DNA of 64,000 bases from Acidimicrobiia bacterium. GTDB taxonomy: Bacteria; Actinomycetota; Acidimicrobiia; Acidimicrobiales; JANYDT01. The stretch is from assembly GCA_025359845.1 (NCBI GenBank), contig JANYDT010000218.1, positions 10,671-74,670 of the forward strand, read 5' to 3'. The notes below the pieces were generated by a model. That model was given only the letters and a program-made list of their open reading frames with translations, made no database searches and had not been told where the DNA came from. A program made the translations under genes and the position numbers. Below, in pieces: positions 2-59,887 of this stretch. The number at the start of each line of letters is the position of its first letter. The stretch's first letter is position 1.

Positions 2-679
2 ATCGAGATGATCACGCTGCGGCGCCCGGTCCATCACGCCCAGGCCCATCACTTCGTGTACGCCGGTTGCGCGTCGTTTTACGATCCGCCGGCGATTCGG
101 CGCTCCGAGATGGGCGAGGTGGCCCTGCGGGTGGGACGGGCGTTGCGGGCCGAAGTCGGCTTCCGGGGCGCGTTCACCGTCGATGGGGTCATGACCGGTG
201 ATGGCTTCCGGCCCACCGAACTCAATCCTCGGCCCGGAGCCGGCCTCAACGTGTTGCGCGGGGCGCTCGGATCGTTCCCGTTGCTCCTCGCCCTCGACGC
301 CATCGTGGCCGGGCTCGACGTGGACTGGCGACCGCGGGAGCTCGAAGCCGAACTAGTGCGCGCCGCCGATGACGAACGGGGCGGAGGGACGTGGCGCATG
401 GTGTCAGCCGAGGTTGACGAGGCTGAGCGCCCCCTCCTGCTCAGCCCGTCGCCGCGGTGGGCCCTCGACGGCGAGCCTCATGATGTGACTGTCGAGATTG
501 GCTCCAGCGGCTCCGTCGCGTTCCTCCGGTCAATGGCGGTGCCCGGACGGGTGCCAGTCGGCGCCAGCTTTGCGCCGACTGCGGTGGCTATCTGGGAGTT
601 CCTCGATCGTGAGCTGCACTTGGGTTTTGGACCGGTTCTTGCCTGCCACCCGTCGGAGGATGCCGACGGGGAACGATGA
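2..679 (+). CDS. ATP-grasp-like protein, C-terminal fragment (gene continues upstream of window)
   Basis: Frame is open to position 2 (track ORF 8..679). Segment GFRGAFTVDGVMTGDGFRPTELNPRPGAG resembles the C-terminal half of ATP-grasp enzymes. Third positions are G/C-rich. Confidence 0.5.
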   Translation: MEMITLRRPVHHAQAHHFVYAGCASFYDPPAIRRSEMGEVALRVGRALRAEVGFRGAFTVDGVMTGDGFRPTELNPRPGAGLNVLRGALGSFPLLLALDAIVAGLDVDWRPRELEAELVRAADDERGGGTWRMVSAEVDEAERPLLLSPSPRWALDGEPHDVTVEIGSSGSVAFLRSMAVPGRVPVGASFAPTAVAIWEFLDRELHLGFGPVLACHPSEDADGER

Positions 680-685
680 TGGGGC

Positions 686-7841: not shown

Positions 7842-8981
7842 TTACCGGCGGGAGAGCGCGACCGGTGTCGGCTTGGAGTGGCCAGGGCCCGGCGACGGTT
7901 TTGCGCCGACCAACGCAAGCGCCTCATCGGCGTTGCCCCAAACGCACTCCGGGTCGGGTCCATCGAGCGGAAGCCCGGTGAAGAATTTCGCCGCCATGCA
8001 ACCCCCCTGGCAGGAATCGAAGCTGCCGCACGAAGCGCACGCTCCGGCCGACTGCGGCTGGCGAAGCTCAAGAAACAGCTGGGACTCGCGCCACACGCTG
8101 GTGAAACCGCCCGCGTCGCGCACGCTGCCGGCCTTGAAGTCGTCGTGGAGCACGAACGGGCACGCGTAGACGTCGCCGACCGGATCGATCAGGCACACGA
8201 TTCTCCCAGCCCCACAAAGGTTGAGCCCGGGTAGGGCCTCCCCGAGGGCGGAGAGGTGAAAAAACGAGTCACCGGTCAGCACGTGGGGACGGGCGACCAA
8301 CCACCGATAGAGCTCGCGTTGCTGGCCGTTGGTGGGATGCAACCGGTCCCACGAATCGGCGCCGCGACCGGCCGGACGAAGGCGGGTGAGGCGCAACTCG
8401 GCGCCGTAGCCGAGAGCGAGCGCCTCGAAGTCATCGAGCTGATCGACGTTCTCACGGGTCACGACCACGGAGATCTTGAACTGGCCAAAGTTCGCCGCGG
8501 CCAAGTTGTCCATCGCCCGGCGAGCCGTGGCGAACGAGCCGACGCCGCGCACTGCGTCATTAGTGAAGGCGTTGGCCCCGTCGATCGAGATCTGCACGTC
8601 TATGTAGTTGCTGCCGGCCAGGCGCCTAGCCGCCACGGGATCGATCTGGGATCCGTTGGTCGAGAACTTCACGCCGACGCCCTGGGCCACCGAATGCTCG
8701 ACGATCTCGAAGAAGTCGGGCCGGATGGTGGGCTCGCCGCCGCCGATGTTCACGTAGAACACTTGGAGCCGGGCCAACTCGTCGATGAATGCCTTGCATT
8801 CGTCGCCGGTCAGTTCGCGCGGGTCACGACGGCCCGACGAGGACAAGCAGTGGATGCAGGCCAGGTTGCACGCGTAGGTCAGTTCCCACGTGAGGCATAT
8901 AGGGGCGTCGAGGCCCCCCTTGAGTTGTTCAACGAGCGGCGGCACAGATGATCTCCGATGCTTCGAGGTCGGCGAGTGCAC
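7842..8981 (-). CDS. mftC: Mycofactocin radical SAM maturase MftC
   Basis: LDAPICLTWELTYACNLACIHCLSSSG (CxxxCxxC), QVFYVNIGGGEPT, SPASM-type C-terminus CGAGR...CPF...CASCGSFDSCQGGCMAAKFFTGLPLDGPDPECV. Near-colinear with M. tuberculosis MftC as I remember it. Alternative GTG start at 8945. Confidence 0.9.
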   Translation of the reverse strand: MHSPTSKHRRSSVPPLVEQLKGGLDAPICLTWELTYACNLACIHCLSSSGRRDPRELTGDECKAFIDELARLQVFYVNIGGGEPTIRPDFFEIVEHSVAQGVGVKFSTNGSQIDPVAARRLAGSNYIDVQISIDGANAFTNDAVRGVGSFATARRAMDNLAAANFGQFKISVVVTRENVDQLDDFEALALGYGAELRLTRLRPAGRGADSWDRLHPTNGQQRELYRWLVARPHVLTGDSFFHLSALGEALPGLNLCGAGRIVCLIDPVGDVYACPFVLHDDFKAGSVRDAGGFTSVWRESQLFLELRQPQSAGACASCGSFDSCQGGCMAAKFFTGLPLDGPDPECVWGNADEALALVGAKPSPGPGHSKPTPVALSRR

Positions 8982-17626: not shown

Positions 17627-17986
17627 TCACGACAACAGCTGTCGGACCCGATCCTTGGGTCGTCCGATGATCGCCTTGTCGCCTTTCACCACGACCGGGC
17701 GCTGGAGCAGCGCTGGTCGTTGCAGCAGCAACTCCACCACCGCCTCAGGCGTCTGATAATCCTCTTCTTTCAGCCCCAGTTTGGCGAACTGCGAATCCTT
17801 GCGGACGAGGTCGGCGGCCGGGTCTTCGAGCTTTGCCACGATCGACTCGAGGGCGGCGCGATCGGGGCGGGTGGCTTTCTTCATGTACTCGACGATGTCG
17901 AACTCGACACCCAGCTCTTGCGCAATGGCAACAGCGTTTTGCGAAGAGTTTCAGTGAGGGTTGTGGAAAATGGTGACTTCGGCCAT
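17627..17986 (-). CDS. ArsC/Spx/YffB-family protein with in-frame UGA (17951-17953) at the catalytic Cys position; candidate selenoprotein or nonsense pseudogene
   Basis: Track ORFs 17951..18253 (ends MAEVTIFHNPH-TGA) and 17627..17884 share one frame. The joined 119-codon product aligns along its whole length with E. coli ArsC (IYHNPACGTSRN; LLRKN..LGL; INRPIVV; CRPSE). Confidence 0.7.
17915..17948 (-). promoter_or_regulatory. Stem-loop starting 2 nt after the UGA (SECIS-like position)
   Basis: mRNA CUCUUCGCAA [13-nt loop AACGCUGUUGCCA] UUGCG(C)AAGAG: 10 bp with one bulged C. The loop contains G and U residues. Confidence 0.35.
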
Positions 17987-18071
17987 GCCTGCGACCTTAC
18001 CGCCGGCGGAGTCCCGACACGAAGTACGCGGCCATGGGTCGTTCGACTCATTTCCGTCGGAGGAGCGAAAG

Positions 18072-18293
18072 GTGGGCGCCGCATGTGTCGATGCAAACGT
18101 TGTGTCCGCCATGTCGTCTTCCGTTCGCTCGGCCGATCCACGCATCGCCGAGGCCCTTCGCCTACCCGTGATGGAGCGCCACACCATCCTGAACGACCTC
18201 CGTCTGCGCCGCCGCAGCCGAAAGGTCGGAACAGCGGTGCATGACCGCTTCAAGATCTCGCTGCCGTGGGACGATCACGTCGGCCTCGCCTGA
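18072..18293 (+). CDS. Hypothetical small protein (73 aa)
   Basis: GTG 18072 is preceded by GGAGGAG with a 6-nt spacer. Third positions are mostly G/C. No family recognised. Confidence 0.3.
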   Translation: MGAACVDANVVSAMSSSVRSADPRIAEALRLPVMERHTILNDLRLRRRSRKVGTAVHDRFKISLPWDDHVGLA

Positions 18294-20886: not shown

Positions 20887-21006
20887 CTAGTAAACGCCAC
20901 ACATGCCATCGATAGAAATTTCTTCGATCAGCAATTCATCGTCGACCAGTTCGTCGTCGAGCGAGTCTTCGATTTCGACGTTGGGGTTAGCAGTGAGGGT
21001 TGACAC
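20887..21006 (-). CDS. mftA: Mycofactocin precursor peptide MftA
   Basis: GTG-STLTANPNVEIEDSLDDELVDDELLIEEISIDGMCGVY-TAG has the invariant C-terminal IDGMCGVY. GGAGGA lies 8 nt upstream of the GTG. This is the 3' part of track ORF 20887..21072. Confidence 0.9.
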   Translation of the reverse strand: MSTLTANPNVEIEDSLDDELVDDELLIEEISIDGMCGVY

Positions 21007-21021: not shown

Positions 21022-22497
21022 ATGACGGTGACGGGCGGGCAGTCCCCGCAGCATATCGAGTTGCCAGGGCACACTCGGCTTCGCCTCGATCCGAGCGCCG
21101 AACGCCTTGCCGGACGCGACTGTCGGACGGTGATCATGGGCGGTTCGCCGCTACGGCTGATGCGTCTCGATCAACGCGGCATCAAGGTATTCGACCAGCT
21201 CGGGTCGGGGATTCGCCTCGATTCGGTCACCAGTGCGTCGCGACGGGCTATCGCCAACCTGGCCCGACGGTTGCTCGATGGGGGCCTGGCCCACCCGGAT
21301 TGGTCGAGCGAACCCGACGCCGTTTCGCCCACTCCTTCCGGACGGTTTACGGCGGCCGATGTGACCGTGGTGGTGCCGGTGAAGGACCGCCCGGAGCAAT
21401 TGGCCCGCCTCCTGGCTTCGGTCGGGCCGGGGCCGGTAATCGTGGTCGACGACGGATCGGCGGTGCCAGTCGGCCACCTTCCGGCCAACGTCGAGGTGGT
21501 CCGCCACAACCAATCCCGCGGGCCAGGAGCAGCCCGCAACACCGGCTTCGCGCATGCGACCACGGCCCTCGTTGCGTTCGCCGACTCCGATGTCGTGCTG
21601 CCCGGCGGTTGGCTCGACGCCCTGCTCCCCCATTTCGACGACCCGGCGGTCGGGCTCGTTGCGCCTCGCATCGCGCCTCTGGTGTCCGATGGCTCGGTGC
21701 TGACCCGCTACGAAGCGGCCCGATCGTCGCTCGATCTCGGGCCCCTGCCGGCCAGGGTCGCGCCGCGCACGCGGGTTGGCTACGTTCCGGCCGCAGTCCT
21801 GCTCGTGCGCCGCGAGGCCTTCGATGGGTTTCTCGAAGCCATGCCGGTGGGCGAAGACGTCGACGCCGTCTGGCGGCTCATCGCCCGGCACTGGACCGCC
21901 CGCTACGAACCGGCCAGCACCGTTCAACACGACCACCGGACCCGCTTCGTCGACTTTCTCCGTCGCCGTGCTGAGTATGGATCCAGCGCCGCTCCCCTCG
22001 CCTTGCGACACCGTCACGATGTGACCCCGCTCGCCGTCTCGGGGTGGAGCGCCTTCGCCTGGGGGTTGCTCGCGACCCAAACGCCATTGGGTATTGCCGG
22101 CGCGCCTCTCGTGGCCGGAGTCACCACAGCAATGCTGCCGGGCAAACTCAAATCGCTCGCCGAACCCAACCATGTCGCGGTCCGGCTCGGCCTCCGCGGC
22201 CATCTCGGCGCCGGCCGCCAGATCGCGTCGGCGATCATGCGGGCGTATCTCCCAATGGCCGTGCCGCTCGCCGTCGGATCGCGAAGGGCTCGCAGGGCGC
22301 TGCTCGCGGCCGCCGTCGTGCCGGCCTTGCTCGAATGGCACGAGCGGCGCCCCCCTATCGACGCGCCGCGGTGGGTGTTGTTGCGCTGCGCCGACGACGC
22401 GGCCTATTGCGTCGGAGTATGGATAGGCGCGATCGAACACCGCACCATCGCGCCGCTGGTTCCTGACTTCACCAGTTGGCCCCGCACTAGAAAGTGA
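21022..22497 (+). CDS. mftF: Mycofactocin-system glycosyltransferase MftF (GT2 family)
   Basis: GGSPLRLMRL N-terminal region, VTVVVPVKD...VIVVDDGS...RGPGAARNTG...FADSDV...GEDVDAVWRL...QHDHR, C-terminal membrane-like half. Colinear with M. tuberculosis MftF as I remember it. Confidence 0.85.
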   Translation: MTVTGGQSPQHIELPGHTRLRLDPSAERLAGRDCRTVIMGGSPLRLMRLDQRGIKVFDQLGSGIRLDSVTSASRRAIANLARRLLDGGLAHPDWSSEPDAVSPTPSGRFTAADVTVVVPVKDRPEQLARLLASVGPGPVIVVDDGSAVPVGHLPANVEVVRHNQSRGPGAARNTGFAHATTALVAFADSDVVLPGGWLDALLPHFDDPAVGLVAPRIAPLVSDGSVLTRYEAARSSLDLGPLPARVAPRTRVGYVPAAVLLVRREAFDGFLEAMPVGEDVDAVWRLIARHWTARYEPASTVQHDHRTRFVDFLRRRAEYGSSAAPLALRHRHDVTPLAVSGWSAFAWGLLATQTPLGIAGAPLVAGVTTAMLPGKLKSLAEPNHVAVRLGLRGHLGAGRQIASAIMRAYLPMAVPLAVGSRRARRALLAAAVVPALLEWHERRPPIDAPRWVLLRCADDAAYCVGVWIGAIEHRTIAPLVPDFTSWPRTRK

Positions 22498-35146: not shown

Positions 35147-35179
35147 GGCGTCATCGCTTCGGTTCGGTGCTTGCGGATG

Positions 35180-35989
35180 TCAGCCGCCTAGTTCGCGAGA
35201 GCGTTCGGTGGCGGCGACTACCGCGTCGAGAAACGCGGCCCGCACGCCGCGTTGCTCGAGGACGCGCAGCCCGGCCGCAGTCGTGCCGCCGGGCGAGGTG
35301 ACGTTTGCCCTGAGAACGCCAGGGTCGTCACCGGACTCGCTGAGCAACCGAGCCGCGCCGAGGAGGGTCTGAATGGCCAGAGCCGAGGCGGTGTCGCGGG
35401 GCAGGCCTACGAGCACGCCCGCCTCGACGAGCGCTTCGGCGACCAGGAACACATACGCCGGACCCGAACCAGAAAGACCGGTGACTGCGTCGAGAGCGGC
35501 TTCGCCAACTGTGCGAACGATGCCCACGGCCGAGAGCAGCTCTGAGGCCCAGCCCAGATCATCGGGCCGGGCGGTGGTGCCCGGGGCGATCGCCGCCGCT
35601 CCGGCCCCAACCAAGGCCGGGGTATTGGGCATGGCCCGCACCACCCGCACGTCGGGCCCGAGCCACCGCTCGAGATTGGCGATCGTGACCCCGGCGGCGA
35701 TCGACAAGGCCCGCCCGCCGGCCAGCGCCGGCGCCGCCGCCCGACAGGCGCCCTCCACGTGTTGCGGTTTGACGGCGATTATCGCCCCTTCGGCTCGGAG
35801 CCCTGGCGTGATTTCGCCCTCCACTCGTAGCCCTTTGAACCGGTGGGCGAGTTCGGATTGTCGGAGGGCTACCGGTTCGACAACCACGACTTCATCGAGC
35901 CGACACCAACTCGCGGCGACGAGTCCGTGGAGTAACGCCTCGCCCATCTTGCCGCCCCCGACGACGAGCAACTTGACCTGAGCATCCAT
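35180..35989 (-). CDS. proC: Pyrroline-5-carboxylate reductase
   Basis: LLVVGGGKMGEALL, RAMPNTPALVGAG, VTSPGGTTAAGL. Confidence 0.9.
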   Translation of the reverse strand: MDAQVKLLVVGGGKMGEALLHGLVAASWCRLDEVVVVEPVALRQSELAHRFKGLRVEGEITPGLRAEGAIIAVKPQHVEGACRAAAPALAGGRALSIAAGVTIANLERWLGPDVRVVRAMPNTPALVGAGAAAIAPGTTARPDDLGWASELLSAVGIVRTVGEAALDAVTGLSGSGPAYVFLVAEALVEAGVLVGLPRDTASALAIQTLLGAARLLSESGDDPGVLRANVTSPGGTTAAGLRVLEQRGVRAAFLDAVVAATERSRELGG

Positions 35990-42149: not shown

Positions 42150-43433
42150 TCACCTCACCGGCTCCAGATGCTTACGGGCCGACCACAACGCGGAAATGGG
42201 CGTTCCACCGGTGCGGGAGCCCGAACGACGCCACCCGTCGGGCAGCAGGTGGTCGAGCACGTCGTCGACGCTGACCGCCCCCAACAAGCGGCCGGCGGCG
42301 TCGAGCACGGGGACGGCGACAACATCGTGAGCGGCCAGCCGTCGAGCGATCTCGGCGATCGGAAGGTCATCGGAGACCGGCTCGGGCACTTCGTCGAGGC
42401 ATTTTCCGAGCGGGGTCATGGGCGGTTCGCGAAGGAGCCGCTGGAAGCCTACCGGGCCCAGGTACCGACCCGTCGGGGTCTCGAGCGGCGCCTCGCAAAC
42501 AAATACGTGAGCCGCTTCGGCCGCTGGGAGGTCGGGATCACGAAGCCGCGCCAGCGCCTCGGCCACCGTGGCCTGCCCGGAGAGGATAAGCGGTTCGGGG
42601 TTCATGAGACCGCCCGCGGAATGCGGCGAGTACTGCAACAGGCGCCGCAACGACTGCGAATCCTCTGGGTCCATCTCGTTGAGTACGTTTTCGCGATCGC
42701 GAACTGGCAGTTCGGCCAACAAGTCGGCAGCATCGTCCTGATCCATTTCTTCGAGCACATCGGCGGCCCGCTCAGCCCCCTCCTCCTCGATGATGTGCCC
42801 AATAATCGTGACGCCTTCGTTTTCGGGTAATTCGACGAGCAGGTCGGCCAAGTCTTCATCTTCCATGGCGGTGGCCAGCGCGACCCTCTCGCGTTCGGGC
42901 ATGGCCGCCATCTGGTCGGCGGCGTCGGCAGGATGCATATCGCGCAGTTCGGCCAGATGCTGTTCGGCCGGACCGGCCAAAAACAGTTGTAGCAGCACAT
43001 CCCAGCCGGCGATGCGAGATGATCGCCGACGCCGCAAGAACCCCGTCCCTGCCATCGAAACGCCACTCACCTCCCAGCTGCGCAGCTGGCCTGGGGTAGC
43101 CCGGAGGGCGACATCGTTGATCACCTCACGGCCCAGCGTGCGCTCGAACAGCTCTTTCTTGACGAGCAGCTCGCCGTTGCGCTGGCGAAACTTGCGAAGA
43201 TCGACAGTGCCCGTCAGCAGCCGGGCCCCCGAGGCGTCGAGTTCGCTCACCCGATTGGCGTTCACGAAAATTTGGCGTCGCTGTACTTCGGCCACGAAAC
43301 CTAGGACGGGCGGAGCCGAATCGGCACCAGGGTAGCCAATCACCACATCGACGACGCGACCCACAGGCGAGCCGTCGCGGGCCAGCAACATGAGCCCCGT
43401 CACGCGGGACACGAACACGGGGGCGTTCGACAT
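42150..43433 (-). CDS. Soluble MgtE-N-domain / CBS-pair protein with PRC-barrel-like N-terminus
   Basis: Acidic MgtE_N repeats (DLADLLVELPENE, DDAADLLAELPVRDRENVLNEM) followed by CBS pairs. No transmembrane domain. ATG 43433. Confidence 0.7.
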   Translation of the reverse strand: MSNAPVFVSRVTGLMLLARDGSPVGRVVDVVIGYPGADSAPPVLGFVAEVQRRQIFVNANRVSELDASGARLLTGTVDLRKFRQRNGELLVKKELFERTLGREVINDVALRATPGQLRSWEVSGVSMAGTGFLRRRRSSRIAGWDVLLQLFLAGPAEQHLAELRDMHPADAADQMAAMPERERVALATAMEDEDLADLLVELPENEGVTIIGHIIEEEGAERAADVLEEMDQDDAADLLAELPVRDRENVLNEMDPEDSQSLRRLLQYSPHSAGGLMNPEPLILSGQATVAEALARLRDPDLPAAEAAHVFVCEAPLETPTGRYLGPVGFQRLLREPPMTPLGKCLDEVPEPVSDDLPIAEIARRLAAHDVVAVPVLDAAGRLLGAVSVDDVLDHLLPDGWRRSGSRTGGTPISALWSARKHLEPVR

Positions 43434-43587
43434 TGACCCGAACTTACCCCCTTCCACGAGGCTGCCGTCACTGTTTTGCCCAGGCTGGTCGGTTCATCGC
43501 CTATTGTTGACCGAATCGGTCGGCTTTCAATTCGGGCTTGTCCTCCGCCGTCCTCACCGTCCTGCCAATCACGAAGGGAGCCGAGCC

Positions 43588-44523
43588 ATGAGCCCAGGCC
43601 CGACAACCGCGACGCCGTCGCCTCACTCGCTCAGCAACTTGCGCGAACTCGAAGCCGAATCAATCCACATCATGCGCGAAGTGGCAGCCGAGTTCGAGTG
43701 CCCTGGCCTGCTGTTCTCGGGCGGTAAAGACTCGATCGTCATGTTGCGCTTGGCCGAGAAAGCGTTTTGGCCGGCCAAAGTGCCGTTTCCCGTGGTGCAC
43801 GTCGACACCGGACATAACTTCGACGAAGTCATCGCGTATCGCGACAAGCGAGTCGCTGAACTTGGCGTACGCCTCATCGTCGGCTCGGTACAGGCCGACA
43901 TCGACGCCGGCCGGGCGATCGAGGAGACCGGCCCGCGAGCGTCGCGCAATCGCCTGCAGACTGTCACATTGTTGCGCACCATTGAGGAGCAGCGCTTCGA
44001 TGCCGCGTTCGGAGGAGCCCGGCGCGACGAAGACAAGGCTCGGGCCAAGGAACGGGTCTTTTCATTTCGGGATGAATTCGGTCAGTGGGACCCGAAGAAT
44101 CAGCGTCCCGAGTTGTGGGCGCTGTTCAACGGTAAGATCCGTCGCGGCGAGCACATTCGCGTGTTCCCGATCTCCAATTGGACCGAACTTGATATCTGGC
44201 AGTACGTCGACGAGGAGAAGATCGAACTCCCGTCGATTTACTTTGCCCACCGTCGTCGGGTTTTCTTGCGCGACAACATGTGGCTGGCCGACACGCCGTT
44301 CGTGACTCCACAGGCCAATGAACCGATTATCGAGAAGCTGGTCCGGTTCCGAACCGTCGGCGACGCTTCATGCACGGGAGCAGTCGAGTCGGCCGCCGAC
44401 ACCGTCGAGAAAGTCATAGCCGAGGTGGCGGCCACCCGGATCACGGAACGAGGCGCGACGCGGGCCGACGATAAAATCAGTGAAGCGGGTATGGAAGACC
44501 GCAAGAAAGAAGGGTATTTCTAA
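43588..44523 (+). CDS. cysD: Sulfate adenylyltransferase subunit 2
   Basis: LLFSGGKDSIVMLRLA, HVDTGHNF, ELWALFNG. ATG 43588 is preceded by GAAGGGAG. Confidence 0.9.
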   Translation: MSPGPTTATPSPHSLSNLRELEAESIHIMREVAAEFECPGLLFSGGKDSIVMLRLAEKAFWPAKVPFPVVHVDTGHNFDEVIAYRDKRVAELGVRLIVGSVQADIDAGRAIEETGPRASRNRLQTVTLLRTIEEQRFDAAFGGARRDEDKARAKERVFSFRDEFGQWDPKNQRPELWALFNGKIRRGEHIRVFPISNWTELDIWQYVDEEKIELPSIYFAHRRRVFLRDNMWLADTPFVTPQANEPIIEKLVRFRTVGDASCTGAVESAADTVEKVIAEVAATRITERGATRADDKISEAGMEDRKKEGYF

Positions 44524-45797
44524 TGGCGATGGCTTTGCACAATCGAGAGATTCTTAGACTCGCCACGGCCGGATCGGTCGATGATGGCAAGTCGACTCTG
44601 ATCGGGCGGCTCCTCTACGACACCAAGTCCATTTTCGAAGATCAATTAGAAGCGGTCGAGCGAACATCGATTCAGATGGGATCGCAATATGTCAATTTGG
44701 CGCTCCTGACCGATGGACTCCGAGCCGAACGCGAGCAAGGCATCACCATCGATGTGGCCTATCGATATTTTGCTACGCCCAGGCGAAAGTTCATCATCGC
44801 CGACACTCCCGGCCATATTCAGTACACCCGCAACATGGTGACGGGCGCGTCGACGGCCGACCTTGCCCTTATTCTCATTGATGCCCGCAACGGCGTCGTC
44901 GAGCAGTCGCGGCGCCATGCCTTCATTTCTTCGCTCCTTCGCATCCCCCATCTCGTCGTATGCGTCAACAAGATGGACCTCGTCGGGTACGAGGAAGAGG
45001 CATACGAACTGGTCTGTGCCGAGTTCACCGAGTTCGCCCGCAAACTTGATGTGGGCGATGTTACTTTCATACCGATCTCCGCGCTGCACGGCGACAACGT
45101 CGTCGACCGCTCAGCGAGTATGGCCTGGTACCAAGGCACTTCGTTACTGCACCATCTTGAGCACGTTCATATTGCTTCCGACCGCAACCTTATCGACGCC
45201 CGGTTTCCGGTCCAGTACGTGATCCGTCCCTACAACGACGAGCACCATGACTATCGAGGTTTGGCCGGAACCGTCGCAGGAGGCATTTTCAAACCGGGTG
45301 ACGAGGTCATGGTATTGCCTTCGGGTTTGACGAGCCGAGTGGCCGCCATCGAAACGTTTGACGGATCGCTCGACGAAGCGTGCGCGCCGATGTCGGTAAC
45401 CATCCGATTGGCCGATGACCTCGATGTCTCGCGCGGCGACATGCTCTGTCGGCCCAACAACCAGCCGATGGTGGGTCAAGACATCGAAGCCATGGTCTGC
45501 TGGATGGGCGATCGCACACGCCTCACCGCCGGCGCCAAGCTGACCATCAAACACACCACCCGTACGGCTCGCGCCTTGGTGAAGGAACTGCGGTATCGAC
45601 TCGACATTAACTCGTTGCATCGCCAGGAGGGCGTCGAGTCACTCGGGCTGAACGACATCGGACGGGTTTCGTTGCGCACCACGCAACCGCTGTTCTTCGA
45701 CGAGTACCGGCGCAACCGCGCCACCGGAAGCTTCATTCTCATCGATGAATCATCGATGGCTACGGTCGGTGCCGGCATGATCATCGGTCCGGAATGA
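44523..45797 (+). CDS. cysN: Sulfate adenylyltransferase subunit 1 (GTPase)
   Basis: GSVDDGKSTLIGRLL, DTPGH, NKMDL. Confidence 0.9.
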   Translation: MAMALHNREILRLATAGSVDDGKSTLIGRLLYDTKSIFEDQLEAVERTSIQMGSQYVNLALLTDGLRAEREQGITIDVAYRYFATPRRKFIIADTPGHIQYTRNMVTGASTADLALILIDARNGVVEQSRRHAFISSLLRIPHLVVCVNKMDLVGYEEEAYELVCAEFTEFARKLDVGDVTFIPISALHGDNVVDRSASMAWYQGTSLLHHLEHVHIASDRNLIDARFPVQYVIRPYNDEHHDYRGLAGTVAGGIFKPGDEVMVLPSGLTSRVAAIETFDGSLDEACAPMSVTIRLADDLDVSRGDMLCRPNNQPMVGQDIEAMVCWMGDRTRLTAGAKLTIKHTTRTARALVKELRYRLDINSLHRQEGVESLGLNDIGRVSLRTTQPLFFDEYRRNRATGSFILIDESSMATVGAGMIIGPE

Positions 45798-57313: not shown

Positions 57314-59887
57314 TCAGGCGGCGGCCATGACCCGCGGCCCGGCCGGCCTGATCTTGGTCGACACGCACGAGTGCGTCGGTGCGCCAGCCAACGGCCCCCT
57401 GAAGGCCTGGGCGTTCGGGTGATGGCGGGCGATCGCCTCAGGTCGCCGGCTGAGCCAACCCTCGAGATCTTCGGCCGGGCCTGGGCGCCCGATGTAGTAC
57501 CCCTGAGCCATCGAGCAGCCAACTTCGAGGAGGTACTCGTAAACTTCAGGGGTCTCGACCCCTTCGGCGACCACATCGAAGTGCAAGGAACTGGCCAGCC
57601 CGAGCACCGTACGCACGATGGTCTGGCCCTCGGTATTGGTGTCGAGTTCACGGAGAAAGCGACGGTCGATTTTGACCTCATGGACCGGAAGTTGTTGCAG
57701 GTAAGCCAATGACGACTGACCGGTACCGAAATCGTCGATCGCCAGCCGCACGCCTAACTGGGCGAGCGCGTGGAGGTTGGTCACGCACACCTCGATCTCG
57801 TTCATGACGCTGCTCTCGGTGATTTCGAGGGTGATGCGCTGCGGGTCGACCCTCGCTTCGTGCAACATGGCCGAGATTTTGGCGCTGAGATCGACGTCAA
57901 GCAGATTGCGCACCGACAAGTTGATGGCCACGTCGATATCAATCCCGGCATCGGCCCACGTCCGCTGCTGCTTGATGCCCTCGCGCAGAACGAACATCGT
58001 AATGTCGGCGATGGCACCCGTCTCCTCGGCCATGGGGATGAATTCGTCAGGACGGATAGGTCCGTAAATGGGGCTGGTCCAGCGGATCAGGGCCTCGACG
58101 CCGGCCAACGAGCCATCTTCGAGATCGACTTTCGGCTGGAAGTGCAGCTCCATCTCGCCCTGCTCGATGGCGTTGCGAATCTTCGACATGAGGTTGAGTC
58201 GTCGGGTGGCCACCATGTCAAGTTCGCGACGGAATCGCTCTACGACGGTCTTCTTGCTCTTGGCCGCGTACATGGCGAGGTCGGCGTACTGGAGCAGAAG
58301 GGGCGCCTCGATACCGTCTTGAGGAAACACCGCTATGCCCAAGCTCGTGTCAACCTGGAGTTGGGTTTCGCCCACGGTGATGGGTTCGCGCAGCTCACGG
58401 GCGATGTCACGGCCCACGTCGAGGCCTTCGTTGGCGTCGCCCAAGCGGGGCAGCAAAATGGCGAACTCGTCGCCGCCGAGGCGGGCCACCACCGCATTCT
58501 GCGGCACTATTAGCAGGAGACGATCGGCGATCTGGCGAAGTAGGTCGTCGCCGACGGCGTGTCCGAGCGTGTCGTTCACATCCTTGAACGCGTCCAGATC
58601 GAGCAGGATCACCGCGCCGGTGTCGCCGACCGCCTGGGCGTTCTCGATGGCCAGCGCCGAGCGAGTCTGGAATTGGCGACGGTTGGGAAGACCGGTCAGC
58701 GCGTCGTGGAGCATGTCGTGTTCGCGTTGACGCAACTGGGCCCGAAGTCTGTCCACGAGTCGGCCGTTATCGAGCCAGATGGCGGTCTGGCTGGCCATGG
58801 CCTCGAACACGGCCTTGTCGTCGTCGTCAAAGGTTTTTCCGTTGGGTCGGTGGATCTCGATGGCCATGACGCCGAACACGTCTTGATCAATGCGCATCGG
58901 CACGGCCAACTGGCCGTCGTGGTAATCGACATGCACAGAACCGGTCCGAATGGCGTCAAGAAGGAACGGGCGGACCTCGGCCGTACCGCTTTCCCGGCGG
59001 ATCAACCCGGAGGAATTCGAGGTGAGCACCACGTACCGATCGTCGCTCTCCGAGGCCAGGACGAGTTCGGCCTCCGTGGCGTCGAGCACTTGACGAGCTT
59101 GGTTGGTGATGAACTCGATGCCCTCGTCGCTGGGCGCGGTGGCGGCCACCAACTTGGCGAATTCGTAAGACTGCGAAACCCGTTGGTAGCCGTTGCGGAG
59201 CTGCCCGTAGTTGTTGAACCCCCACAACATCCCGCCCAGCAACACCATGAGCGGCACGAGGTCGACCGGGTTCTGCCGAAACAACAACACCCCAACGAAG
59301 CTCACCGAGCCCACGAGGACCGACTGAACGACGTTGACCATGCTGGTCTGGATAGTGGACTTCCAAGACCACGTCCGGCCGAGCGAAGCGAAGAGGATGC
59401 CGAACACGAGTGCGCAGGCCGCACCCGAGACGAGCAGCCCGAGGAGTACGGCCGGATACCAAATTGCCGATGTTGTGGGCGAAATACCGATCACAAGTCG
59501 GAAAGCCACCAGGAAAGTTCCGAGTACTAGGAGGTCCTTCCCCAAATTGAAGATGGACTTGTGCCACGGGTTGCGGAAGCGCAAGGCCGTCGCGAGTCGA
59601 GCCACGCAAACCACTACCACTTGGCTGATGGGGGGCAAGAAGAACGCCCCTGCTACGAGGCCGAGTTCGGCGGGATGGCAGATCTGAAACGCGTCTCGCC
59701 AGTACAAGCGGATTCCCCGCAAGGTCGAGCCGACCGCAATCGCCCCCACGATCGCAAAGGCCAGTCCTTTCGGCGAATCCGACAGGATACTTGACCGTCG
59801 AGCGAAAGGGGCAAGGAGACAAATACCTAAGGCACCGACGACAAGGCCGTTCCGCACGGCGACCGAGGTTTCCTTCGTGGCGCTCAT
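57314..59887 (-). CDS. Membrane-bound GAF-GGDEF-EAL protein (diguanylate cyclase/phosphodiesterase)
   Basis: About 260-aa multi-TM N-terminus, a GAF-like region, RLGGDEFAILL, and EAL motif GVEALIRW...DDFGTGQSSL. Confidence 0.9.
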   Translation of the reverse strand: MSATKETSVAVRNGLVVGALGICLLAPFARRSSILSDSPKGLAFAIVGAIAVGSTLRGIRLYWRDAFQICHPAELGLVAGAFFLPPISQVVVVCVARLATALRFRNPWHKSIFNLGKDLLVLGTFLVAFRLVIGISPTTSAIWYPAVLLGLLVSGAACALVFGILFASLGRTWSWKSTIQTSMVNVVQSVLVGSVSFVGVLLFRQNPVDLVPLMVLLGGMLWGFNNYGQLRNGYQRVSQSYEFAKLVAATAPSDEGIEFITNQARQVLDATEAELVLASESDDRYVVLTSNSSGLIRRESGTAEVRPFLLDAIRTGSVHVDYHDGQLAVPMRIDQDVFGVMAIEIHRPNGKTFDDDDKAVFEAMASQTAIWLDNGRLVDRLRAQLRQREHDMLHDALTGLPNRRQFQTRSALAIENAQAVGDTGAVILLDLDAFKDVNDTLGHAVGDDLLRQIADRLLLIVPQNAVVARLGGDEFAILLPRLGDANEGLDVGRDIARELREPITVGETQLQVDTSLGIAVFPQDGIEAPLLLQYADLAMYAAKSKKTVVERFRRELDMVATRRLNLMSKIRNAIEQGEMELHFQPKVDLEDGSLAGVEALIRWTSPIYGPIRPDEFIPMAEETGAIADITMFVLREGIKQQRTWADAGIDIDVAINLSVRNLLDVDLSAKISAMLHEARVDPQRITLEITESSVMNEIEVCVTNLHALAQLGVRLAIDDFGTGQSSLAYLQQLPVHEVKIDRRFLRELDTNTEGQTIVRTVLGLASSLHFDVVAEGVETPEVYEYLLEVGCSMAQGYYIGRPGPAEDLEGWLSRRPEAIARHHPNAQAFRGPLAGAPTHSCVSTKIRPAGPRVMAAA

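Follow-up and report, generated by a model that had tools for sequence, protein, structure and literature searches.

ArsC-type selenoproteins, with selenocysteine (Sec, U) in a UxxS motif, were reported in 2005 from the Sargasso Sea as an "arsenate reductase" family of 14 sequences (Zhang, Fomenko & Gladyshev 2005, PMC1088965). In the Global Ocean Sampling (GOS) data, the family "ArsC 1" (pfam03960) counts 77 Sec sequences against 784 homologues with cysteine (Cys) (Zhang & Gladyshev 2008, PMC2398784). Reviews of 2022 and 2026 list an ArsC selenoprotein under COG1393 and TIGR00014 (for 2026, PMC13188914). We describe here a gene of this type in a stretch of 64,000 nucleotides from an Acidimicrobiia bacterium (contig JANYDT010000218.1 of assembly GCA_025359845.1), called the window below. 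The gene, 17986..17627(-), is very probably a genuine selenoprotein gene, for a 119-residue ArsC-family thiol oxidoreductase with a nucleophile, Sec12, encoded by UGA. It is a further member of the ArsC UxxS family known since 2005; the first-pass annotation of this DNA had pointed to earlier reports of ArsC-like selenoproteins, and correctly so.

That annotation had joined two open reading frames (ORFs), 17951..18253(-) and 17627..17884(-), into an ArsC-family protein of 119 codons read across a UGA. The two do lie in one frame, and translation together with PF03960 upholds the joined protein: 17986..17627(-) is a single frame of 119 codons plus stop, with a sole internal TGA at 17951-17953 and, as had been claimed, no further stops or frameshifts on either side. 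It reads MAEVTIFHNPH, then TGA, then NSSQNAVAIAQELG...RQLLS and the stop. The parts of the gene are the following.

17627..17986, minus strand: the whole coding sequence of the ArsC-family protein, with 119 sense codons, one of them UGA (candidate Sec), and the terminal TGA at 17627-17629 (from the translation, PF03960 and the alignment with R773 ArsC).
17984..17986, minus strand: ATG start codon, read from the sequence.
17995-17999, minus strand: TAAGG, a putative Shine-Dalgarno-like motif.
17951..17953, minus strand: in-frame TGA, codon 12, candidate Sec codon, aligned with Cys12 of R773 ArsC and opening the motif U-N-S-S (UxxS).
17882..17884, minus strand: internal ATG (Met35), the start used by public gene callers, which gives an 85-aa product.
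17801..17803, minus strand: codon of Arg62, equivalent to Arg60 of R773 ArsC by alignment (lvRkd / llRkn), in a column invariant in the homologue alignment.
17699..17701, minus strand: codon of Arg96, equivalent to Arg94 of R773 ArsC (lqRPvvv / inRPivv), likewise in an invariant column.
17660..17662, minus strand: codon of Arg109, equivalent to Arg107 of R773 ArsC (igRP / lcRP), likewise in an invariant column.

With U read as C, PF03960 (the ArsC/Spx/MgsR superfamily) matches residues 7-116 with 57.5 bits, against a gathering cutoff of 24, and the best match in NCBIfam is TIGR00014 arsC with 94.4 bits. The alignment to the R773 ArsC structures 1jzw/1i9d spans residues 1-117, with the TGA on Cys12 and the Arg triad intact, which confirms the end-to-end correspondence noticed at first reading. 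The N terminus MAEVTIFHNPH resembles the N termini of Cys-form homologues, and Cys stands at the TGA column in 22/22 full-length database homologues aligned. The locus thus shows the Sec/Cys pair by which bacterial selenoprotein genes are recognized, an in-frame UGA opposite the Cys of homologues. It also fits the definition of the "ArsC 1" UxxS family, pfam03960 with a Sec codon in U12-N-S-S15. Two other assignments within the superfamily were rejected. The UxxC "arsenate reductase-like" selenoprotein NF041106 is absent from the NCBIfam matches at E<=0.01, and the motif in the window is UxxS. For the Spx/MgsR regulators, the scores are 47.8 bits against a cutoff of 75.05 (TIGR01617) and 35 against 123 (NF002459), and there is no second Cys at +3 (CxxC).

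The behavior of the TGA within the lineage of the window was followed in 17 contigs (13 haplotypes), the window itself and 16 contigs bearing truncated gene calls of the P0029 type, which differ in sample and assembler of origin (ENA, Logan, NCBI). Codon 12 is TGA in 17/17 contigs, after an identical ATG and 11 codons, and no indels or extra stops occur. Between the 13 haplotypes, about 19 codons vary by synonymous changes only and 10 with an amino-acid difference. Over codons 1-34, four changes are synonymous and one is nonsynonymous; if translation ended at codon 12, these codons would be untranslated or useless. Two contigs, L131 and L132, carry unrelated upstream sequence beyond about -27, and even there codons 1-11, with the ATG, are intact. 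The ratio of nonsynonymous to synonymous polymorphism (pN/pS), counted in the same way on the same contigs, is 0.13 for the ArsC gene, 0.18 for the neighboring DinB/MDMPI gene, and 0.13 for the neighboring PALP gene. The TGA is kept under purifying selection on a par with the neighboring genes, and a dead gene with a stop older than the divergence of the lineage strains is excluded. Since the TGA is always present and pN/pS is the same as in neighboring genes, we do not regard the locus as a pseudogene.

In the protein databases, the entries for this lineage consist only of the 85-aa ArsC fragment from Met35 (cluster P0029/P0121-P0126, seven members), which is without the catalytic N terminus. 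The mis-annotation is systematic because of the predicted Sec codon. The practical value of the present analysis is an annotation fix, with a 119-residue selenoprotein in place of the 85-residue fragment in public gene calls.

Gene callers break at TGA, and therefore the search in other species was made directly on DNA, with the pattern [IV]-x-H-N-P-x-TGA-x-x-[ST]-x-x-[AT]-x-x-x-A-x-x-L-G (about 39 bits, for which we estimate about two chance matches) scanned in a collection of one genome per species. At least 120 species give a match. The listed matches (120/120) translate as ArsC homologues with TGA at the column and a start about 11 codons upstream, and nearly all of those listed reach a true stop about 106 codons past the TGA. 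The exceptions to an intact reading are a frameshift (L069), a lost stop (L107), and five genes truncated where their contig ends (L012, L015, L056, L057, and L080). Among the matches listed, most are from Acidimicrobiia (Acidimicrobiales, Ilumatobacteraceae, Microthrixaceae), and some are from Thermoleophilia, Verrucomicrobiota, and Myxococcota; that the class Acidimicrobiia holds most listed Sec-form ArsC genes supports the Sec reading in the window. Many of these genes, including that of the window, terminate at TGA, so that UGA is still a stop in such genomes.

Outside the lineage, the nearest relative among the matches listed is a Sec form (L045, 73.5% identity), while the best Cys form reaches about 68-70%. 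In a rough neighbor-joining tree, the Sec forms of the window clade, L112, and L045 are basal to a crown of 68 Cys forms, and the tree as a whole requires about 25 Sec/Cys changes. We observed no synteny between the window and the 120 listed Sec-form loci. Orthologues thus carry, at the UGA column, either the Cys of the database homologues or, in at least 120 species with otherwise intact genes, TGA. A general decay of orthologues, which the first-pass annotation held would count against its proposal, is not seen: the lineage contigs are free of extra stops and the listed Sec forms are largely intact.

In bacteria, Sec insertion depends on a hairpin in the mRNA, the bacterial Sec insertion sequence (bSECIS), for which a published model gives a loop of 3-9 nt, an upper stem of 4-16 bp, a G in the first two loop positions, a distance of 16-37 nt from the UGA, and an MFE (minimum free energy) of -7.5 or lower (PMC13188914). 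In a general description, the stem has 6-8 bp and the G of the loop lies some 20 nt past the UGA (PMC4605307). The first 40 nt after the TGA were compared in L009-L128, which yield 116 distinct Sec-form sequences (numbering below is from the U of UGA). Two classes are apparent. In class A (67 sequences), the stem is CAAUGC/GCAUUG and the loop CGUG[AC], with G22-U23. In class B (49 sequences), the stem is CCUUGGC/GCCGAGG and the loop GGUC, with G28-U29. Each class is tied to its own peptide, NAV[SR]IA for class A and NALAVA for class B, and both satisfy every criterion of the bSECIS model and fit the general description.

The codons within these hairpins are chosen in a way that the same residues elsewhere in the gene are not. 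In Sec forms, Asn17 in the hairpin is AAT in 64/65 cases, whereas Asn9 is AAC in 67/70; Ile21 in the hairpin is ATT in 69/70, whereas Ile6 is ATC in 60/69. Also fixed in the hairpin are Ala20 as GCG (47/47) and Val21 as GTC (46/46), and the fixed choices include codons rare in these GC-rich genomes. As a control, the same pattern with TGY in place of TGA was run against metagenome contigs and gave 90 distinct Cys-form genes. There, ATT at Ile21 occurs in 2/30 (against 64/67 in Sec forms), AAT at Asn17 in 4/20 (against 81/103), and GTG at Val19 in 12/41 (against 62/64). The class B stem is paired to 95%, three pairs show compensatory changes, among them synonymous double changes (TTG/GCC to TTA/GCT), and 0/500 shuffles match the observed score. 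The class A stem hardly varies and so shows weak covariation; the support there comes from the conservation of rare codons. Owing to the higher GC content of the Cys forms, the two forms cannot be told apart by the raw MFE of the 45 nt behind the codon (Sec -14.4 vs. Cys -15.2, p=0.24), which was not used as evidence; codon choice and position-specific pairing are the measures that inform. There are thus two sharply conserved predicted SECIS designs in the ArsC selenoprotein family. The Sec/Cys pair proposed at first reading for the catalytic Cys is accordingly supported by the Cys in homologues, the TGA in at least 120 species, the family hairpins, and purifying selection. The core motifs of both classes were also scanned in the window for other selenoprotein genes and gave motif-like matches only, none with a properly placed in-frame TGA.

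After the UGA of the window, several hairpins can be drawn.

17915..17948, minus strand: "fold 1", candidate SECIS and MFE structure, with a 5+5 bp stem, a bulged C, a 3x2 internal loop, a GC/GC mini-stem of 2 bp, and a UGUU loop.
17928..17935, minus strand: the apical GC/GC mini-stem and UGUU tetraloop of fold 1 (nt 19-26 from the U of UGA).
17914..17935, minus strand: alternative "fold 2", with pairs 19-40, 20-39, 21-38, 23-36, 24-35, 25-34, and 26-33 and the loop CAUUGC.
17894..17911, minus strand: second hairpin, 46 nt past the UGA, with a perfect stem of 7 bp and an AGUU loop.

Fold 1, CUCUUCGCAA/UUGCG(C)AAGAG, has an MFE of -12.6 kcal/mol over the 45 nt that follow the UGA (-22.1 for 71 nt including the second hairpin). 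Its loop G22-U23 is 19-20 nt past the UGA, the usual place of the conserved loop G (PMC4605307), and UGUU, with G in position 2 followed by U, fits the loop rule of the bSECIS model (PMC13188914). Fold 1 agrees with that model in its loop, the position of the G, the spacing (17 nt, for a range of 16-37), and the energy (-12.6, for a threshold of -7.5). All four lineage haplotypes can form fold 2, which is of minimum energy (-13.6 kcal/mol) in the haplotypes with the change G12->C and suboptimal (-9.7) in the window. Neither fold 2 nor the other alternative folds have a G in the first two loop positions, and they fail the loop-G rule. The second hairpin has a SECIS-like loop, but its spacing of 46 nt is outside the bSECIS range. 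The similar GUCGA...UCGAC repeats present in many homologues are probably a consequence of codon bias and of the V-[DE]-x-D peptide.

Fold 1 is weakly better than chance (z = -1.9 against dinucleotide shuffles). Over codons 13-26 in the window, G+C at third codon positions (GC3) is 0.50, compared with 0.80 elsewhere in the gene (p=0.013), and there is an excess of rare codons (p=0.03). With low GC3 and rare-codon use being the same signature as in the family, an RNA-level constraint after the UGA of the window is likely. Two further polymorphisms of the lineage preserve the pairing via G-U, and the relative L045 has GAUU at the class B loop site. The first-pass annotation had placed a SECIS-type hairpin just after the UGA; its coordinates and its sequence hold, and it is the MFE fold, but this is not the conserved SECIS of the family and it satisfies the bSECIS model only in part.

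Several observations weigh against the Sec reading or against the enzymatic function attached to it. The apical stem of fold 1 has 2 bp above the internal loop, when the rule is 4-16 bp, unless the internal loop is tolerated. The change G12->C, in 6/17 lineage contigs, breaks one pair of fold 1 and moves the MFE to fold 2. The hairpin of the window belongs to neither class: in the class A register, the window alone of 68 sequences breaks the pairs 15-31, 18-28, and 20-26, and in the class B register it forms 5/7 pairs, with C27 in place of the conserved loop G. Of synonymous re-codings of the same peptide with the codon usage of the genome, 10.6% fold at least as well (p=0.106). In the 64-kb window, ARAGORN gave no tRNA gene and Rfam no match, and the scanned proteins include no sel gene product. 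The TIGR00014 score of 94.4 bits is below the equivalog cutoff of 106.05, and no arsR, arsB, acr3, arsA, or other ars genes are found near the gene; for these last two reasons neither an arsenate reductase function nor arsenate as the substrate is established.

As to the machinery, the Rfam scan of the window at the gathering threshold returned nothing, a null that says nothing either way because bacterial SECIS elements are not modelled in Rfam. ARAGORN on the 120 listed Sec-form loci found no tRNA-Sec linked to the ArsC gene, and tblastn with an E. coli SelD sequence, serving as a probe only, gave no SelD match in the window or the Sec-form loci. In the same class Acidimicrobiia, selA, selB, selC, and selD are reported from all 84 complete Actinomarina genomes (bioRxiv 10.64898/2026.04.03.716425), and by analogy the Sec machinery is presumably present in the genome of the window. 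The residual doubt lies in these two places, the atypical hairpin of the lineage and the Sec machinery of the genome.

The lineage is without the 6-bp CAAUGC stem of class A and without the GGUC loop G of class B, yet its UGA is under normal purifying selection. One reading of this, which we consider doubtful though not far-fetched, is that the lineage would use a third, non-canonical recoding element, either because SelB accepts a looser hairpin (one with an apical stem of 2 bp on top of an internal loop, or with a hexaloop that has no loop G) or because Sec insertion uses another determinant.

The chief rival to a working Sec codon is a decaying selenoprotein gene, in which an inherited Sec ArsC would have kept its UGA while the SECIS degenerated or the machinery was lost, with the UGA now mostly terminating. 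The departure of the hairpin from both SECIS classes, without a loop G in the class B register, the loss of fold 1 with G12->C, a stability that is not significant given the peptide, and the lack of sel genes in the 64-kb window would all suit such a gene. It should, however, no longer be constrained, and over the 13 haplotypes pN/pS equals that of the neighboring functional genes, the excess of synonymous changes holds over codons 1-34, neither indels nor extra stops have accumulated in the 17 contigs, and the start with its first 11 codons is kept where the upstream flank is replaced. We consider decay improbable.

Still less probable is a read-through independent of Sec, in which a near-cognate tRNA (for Trp or Cys) or a different recoding signal would allow inefficient decoding of the UGA and yield a full-length protein without selenium. 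A gene under selection in a lineage where the canonical SECIS is absent would be compatible with it, as would the fact that the Sec machinery of this genome is deduced from relatives. Nothing speaks positively in its favor, however; in the family, the UGA goes with SECIS-type hairpins and with a class of known Sec machinery, Sec is the economical explanation, and with Trp in place of the nucleophile the protein would be inactive.

The first-pass annotation had itself named a recent nonsense pseudogene as the alternative, a TGC or TGT changed to TGA in the lineage with the gene dead. TGA is indeed one substitution from TGC/TGT, and in the tree the window clade adjoins a large set of Cys forms. 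The purifying selection in the lineage (in pN/pS, in codons 1-34, and in the kept start) contradicts a dead gene, the closest relatives and the basal branches L045 and L112 are Sec forms, the same column is TGA in intact genes of at least 120 other species, and just past the UGA the codon usage departs from that of the genome, as it does in Sec forms; this alternative is disfavored to the point of being very improbable. An assembly or sequencing artefact with a true codon TGC/TGT, for which only the general possibility speaks, has a negligible probability, since the TGA is read in 17 lineage contigs from different samples and assemblers (ENA, Logan, NCBI), by which sequencing error is excluded. 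Nor is the TGA a chance occurrence, being found in these contigs and in at least 120 other species.

Under the preferred reading, a Sec codon at position 12, the steps would follow established bacterial Sec decoding. SelB with GTP and Sec-tRNASec would bind an mRNA hairpin within about 40 nt past the UGA while the ribosome sits at the UGA. SelB would then deliver Sec in competition with release factor 2 (RF2), and translation would run on to the TGA stop at 17627-17629. In the product, Sec12 would attack a substrate held by the triad Arg62/Arg96/Arg109, and a small thiol with a redoxin would resolve the adduct, in a manner similar to glutaredoxin (Grx)-coupled ArsC. Sec insertion at the UGA is what we infer from the sequence comparisons, and the product probably works as an ArsC-type reductase with a nucleophile and an arginine triad. 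In actinobacteria, the reductant is more likely of the mycothiol/mycoredoxin type than glutathione (GSH) and Grx.

The neighbors of the ArsC gene are PALP, DinB/MDMPI, acyl-CoA dehydrogenases, AMP-binding enzymes, ATP-binding cassette (ABC) transporters, and mycofactocin genes. Across the 120 listed Sec-form loci, there are no conserved ars neighbors; the recurrent ones are an ABC transporter and an unannotated small protein, with the limit that the clustering of neighbors across loci is noisy from spurious antisense ORFs in high-GC DNA. On the opposite strand, an ORF 17985-18293(+) starts on the palindromic CATG of the ArsC start and is called with 102-107 aa in related contigs. It lies directly upstream of the DinB/MDMPI gene and has no Pfam match. 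Among haplotypes, its C-terminal approximately 60 residues (from MSSSVRSADPRIAEALRLPVMERH..., about 18111-18293) are alone conserved; the N-terminal third being variable, the real gene is probably a short form that does not overlap ArsC.

The mycofactocin parts lie at 7842-8981(-), about 20887-21003(-), and 21022-22497(+), and comprise a radical-SAM/SPASM protein (MftC-like), a small ORF ending in ...IDGMCGVY (MftA-like), and a GT2 glycosyltransferase. The homologue of the MftA-like ORF on a related contig (L001) is tagged PF23709, and an MftB chaperone is tagged on another (L007). ABC transporter, acyl-CoA dehydrogenase, and AMP-binding genes stand between the parts. Farther away, at 43390-45797(+), is the sulfate adenylyltransferase pair CysD (PAPS_reduct) and CysN (GTP_EFTU and eEF1A-C). 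The GTP_EFTU protein at 44523-45797, the sole EF-Tu-like GTPase in the window, was considered as SelB and rejected, as it is the CysN adjoining CysD; its best named homologues (78-82% identity) are from metagenome-assembled genomes of Acidimicrobiia or Acidimicrobiales.

Two other places in the window with same-frame ORFs of high GC3 across a TGA are separate genes on translation: at 677-682(+) (TGA 679/680), an ORF followed by a sigma-factor-like ORF, and at 35177-35182(-) (35180), a ProC-like ORF followed by another ORF (both labels come from reading the translations). A GAF-GGDEF-EAL protein at 57314-59887(-), for cyclic-di-GMP turnover, is ordinary and unrelated to the ArsC gene. On a metagenome contig, Ga0299914_10000723 (L212:172-1233(-)), there is a SelD homologue with an in-frame TGA at the active site (YSHGAG, TGA, ACK), about 4.5 kb from a Cys-form ArsC gene. 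As the Sec-containing SelD shares the contig with the Cys-form ArsC, that organism would be Sec-competent yet use Cys in its ArsC.

The current understanding of selenoproteins is unchanged by this locus. What the analysis yields is the corrected gene model, the wide spread of the family in Acidimicrobiia, the two predicted SECIS designs, and a lineage that departs from both. The UxxS ArsC selenoprotein is not just an item of marine metagenomes; it is widespread among Acidimicrobiia and their relatives in the Actinomycetota, with at least 120 species carrying it. With the repeated Sec/Cys interchange, the family is a handy natural system for the study of Sec/Cys exchange and of the constraints of SECIS on coding sequence. 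The substrate of stand-alone ArsC-like enzymes without an ars operon is a modest question.

Compared with the known systems, the gene is closest to the "ArsC 1" family as described: the same Pfam family, Sec for the N-terminal catalytic Cys, UxxS (U-N-S-S in the window), a stem-loop after the UGA, and widespread Cys homologues. The published sequences are marine-metagenomic, whereas the window is from Acidimicrobiia, and the likeness is drawn through the family descriptions; the hairpin of the window differs from both conserved classes of the 116 other Sec forms. With the UxxC selenoproteins (NF041106, "Arsenate reductase 2", cd03032), the gene shares the ArsC/Spx superfamily and Sec at the N-terminal redox position, but that family has UxxC and the window UxxS. 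The E. coli fdhF-type bSECIS is likewise a hairpin after the UGA, and the window has its loop G-U at nt 22-23, about 20 nt on, an MFE of -12.6, and a spacing of 17 nt, but its upper stem is 2 bp above an internal loop and alternative folds lack the loop G. With R773 ArsC, finally, the alignment is full-length, the length class is the same, and the HNPxC/U motif and the equivalents of Arg60, Arg94, and Arg107 are shared, whereas the product of the window would have Sec for Cys12, scores below the TIGR00014 cutoff, and is encoded with no ars operon around it.

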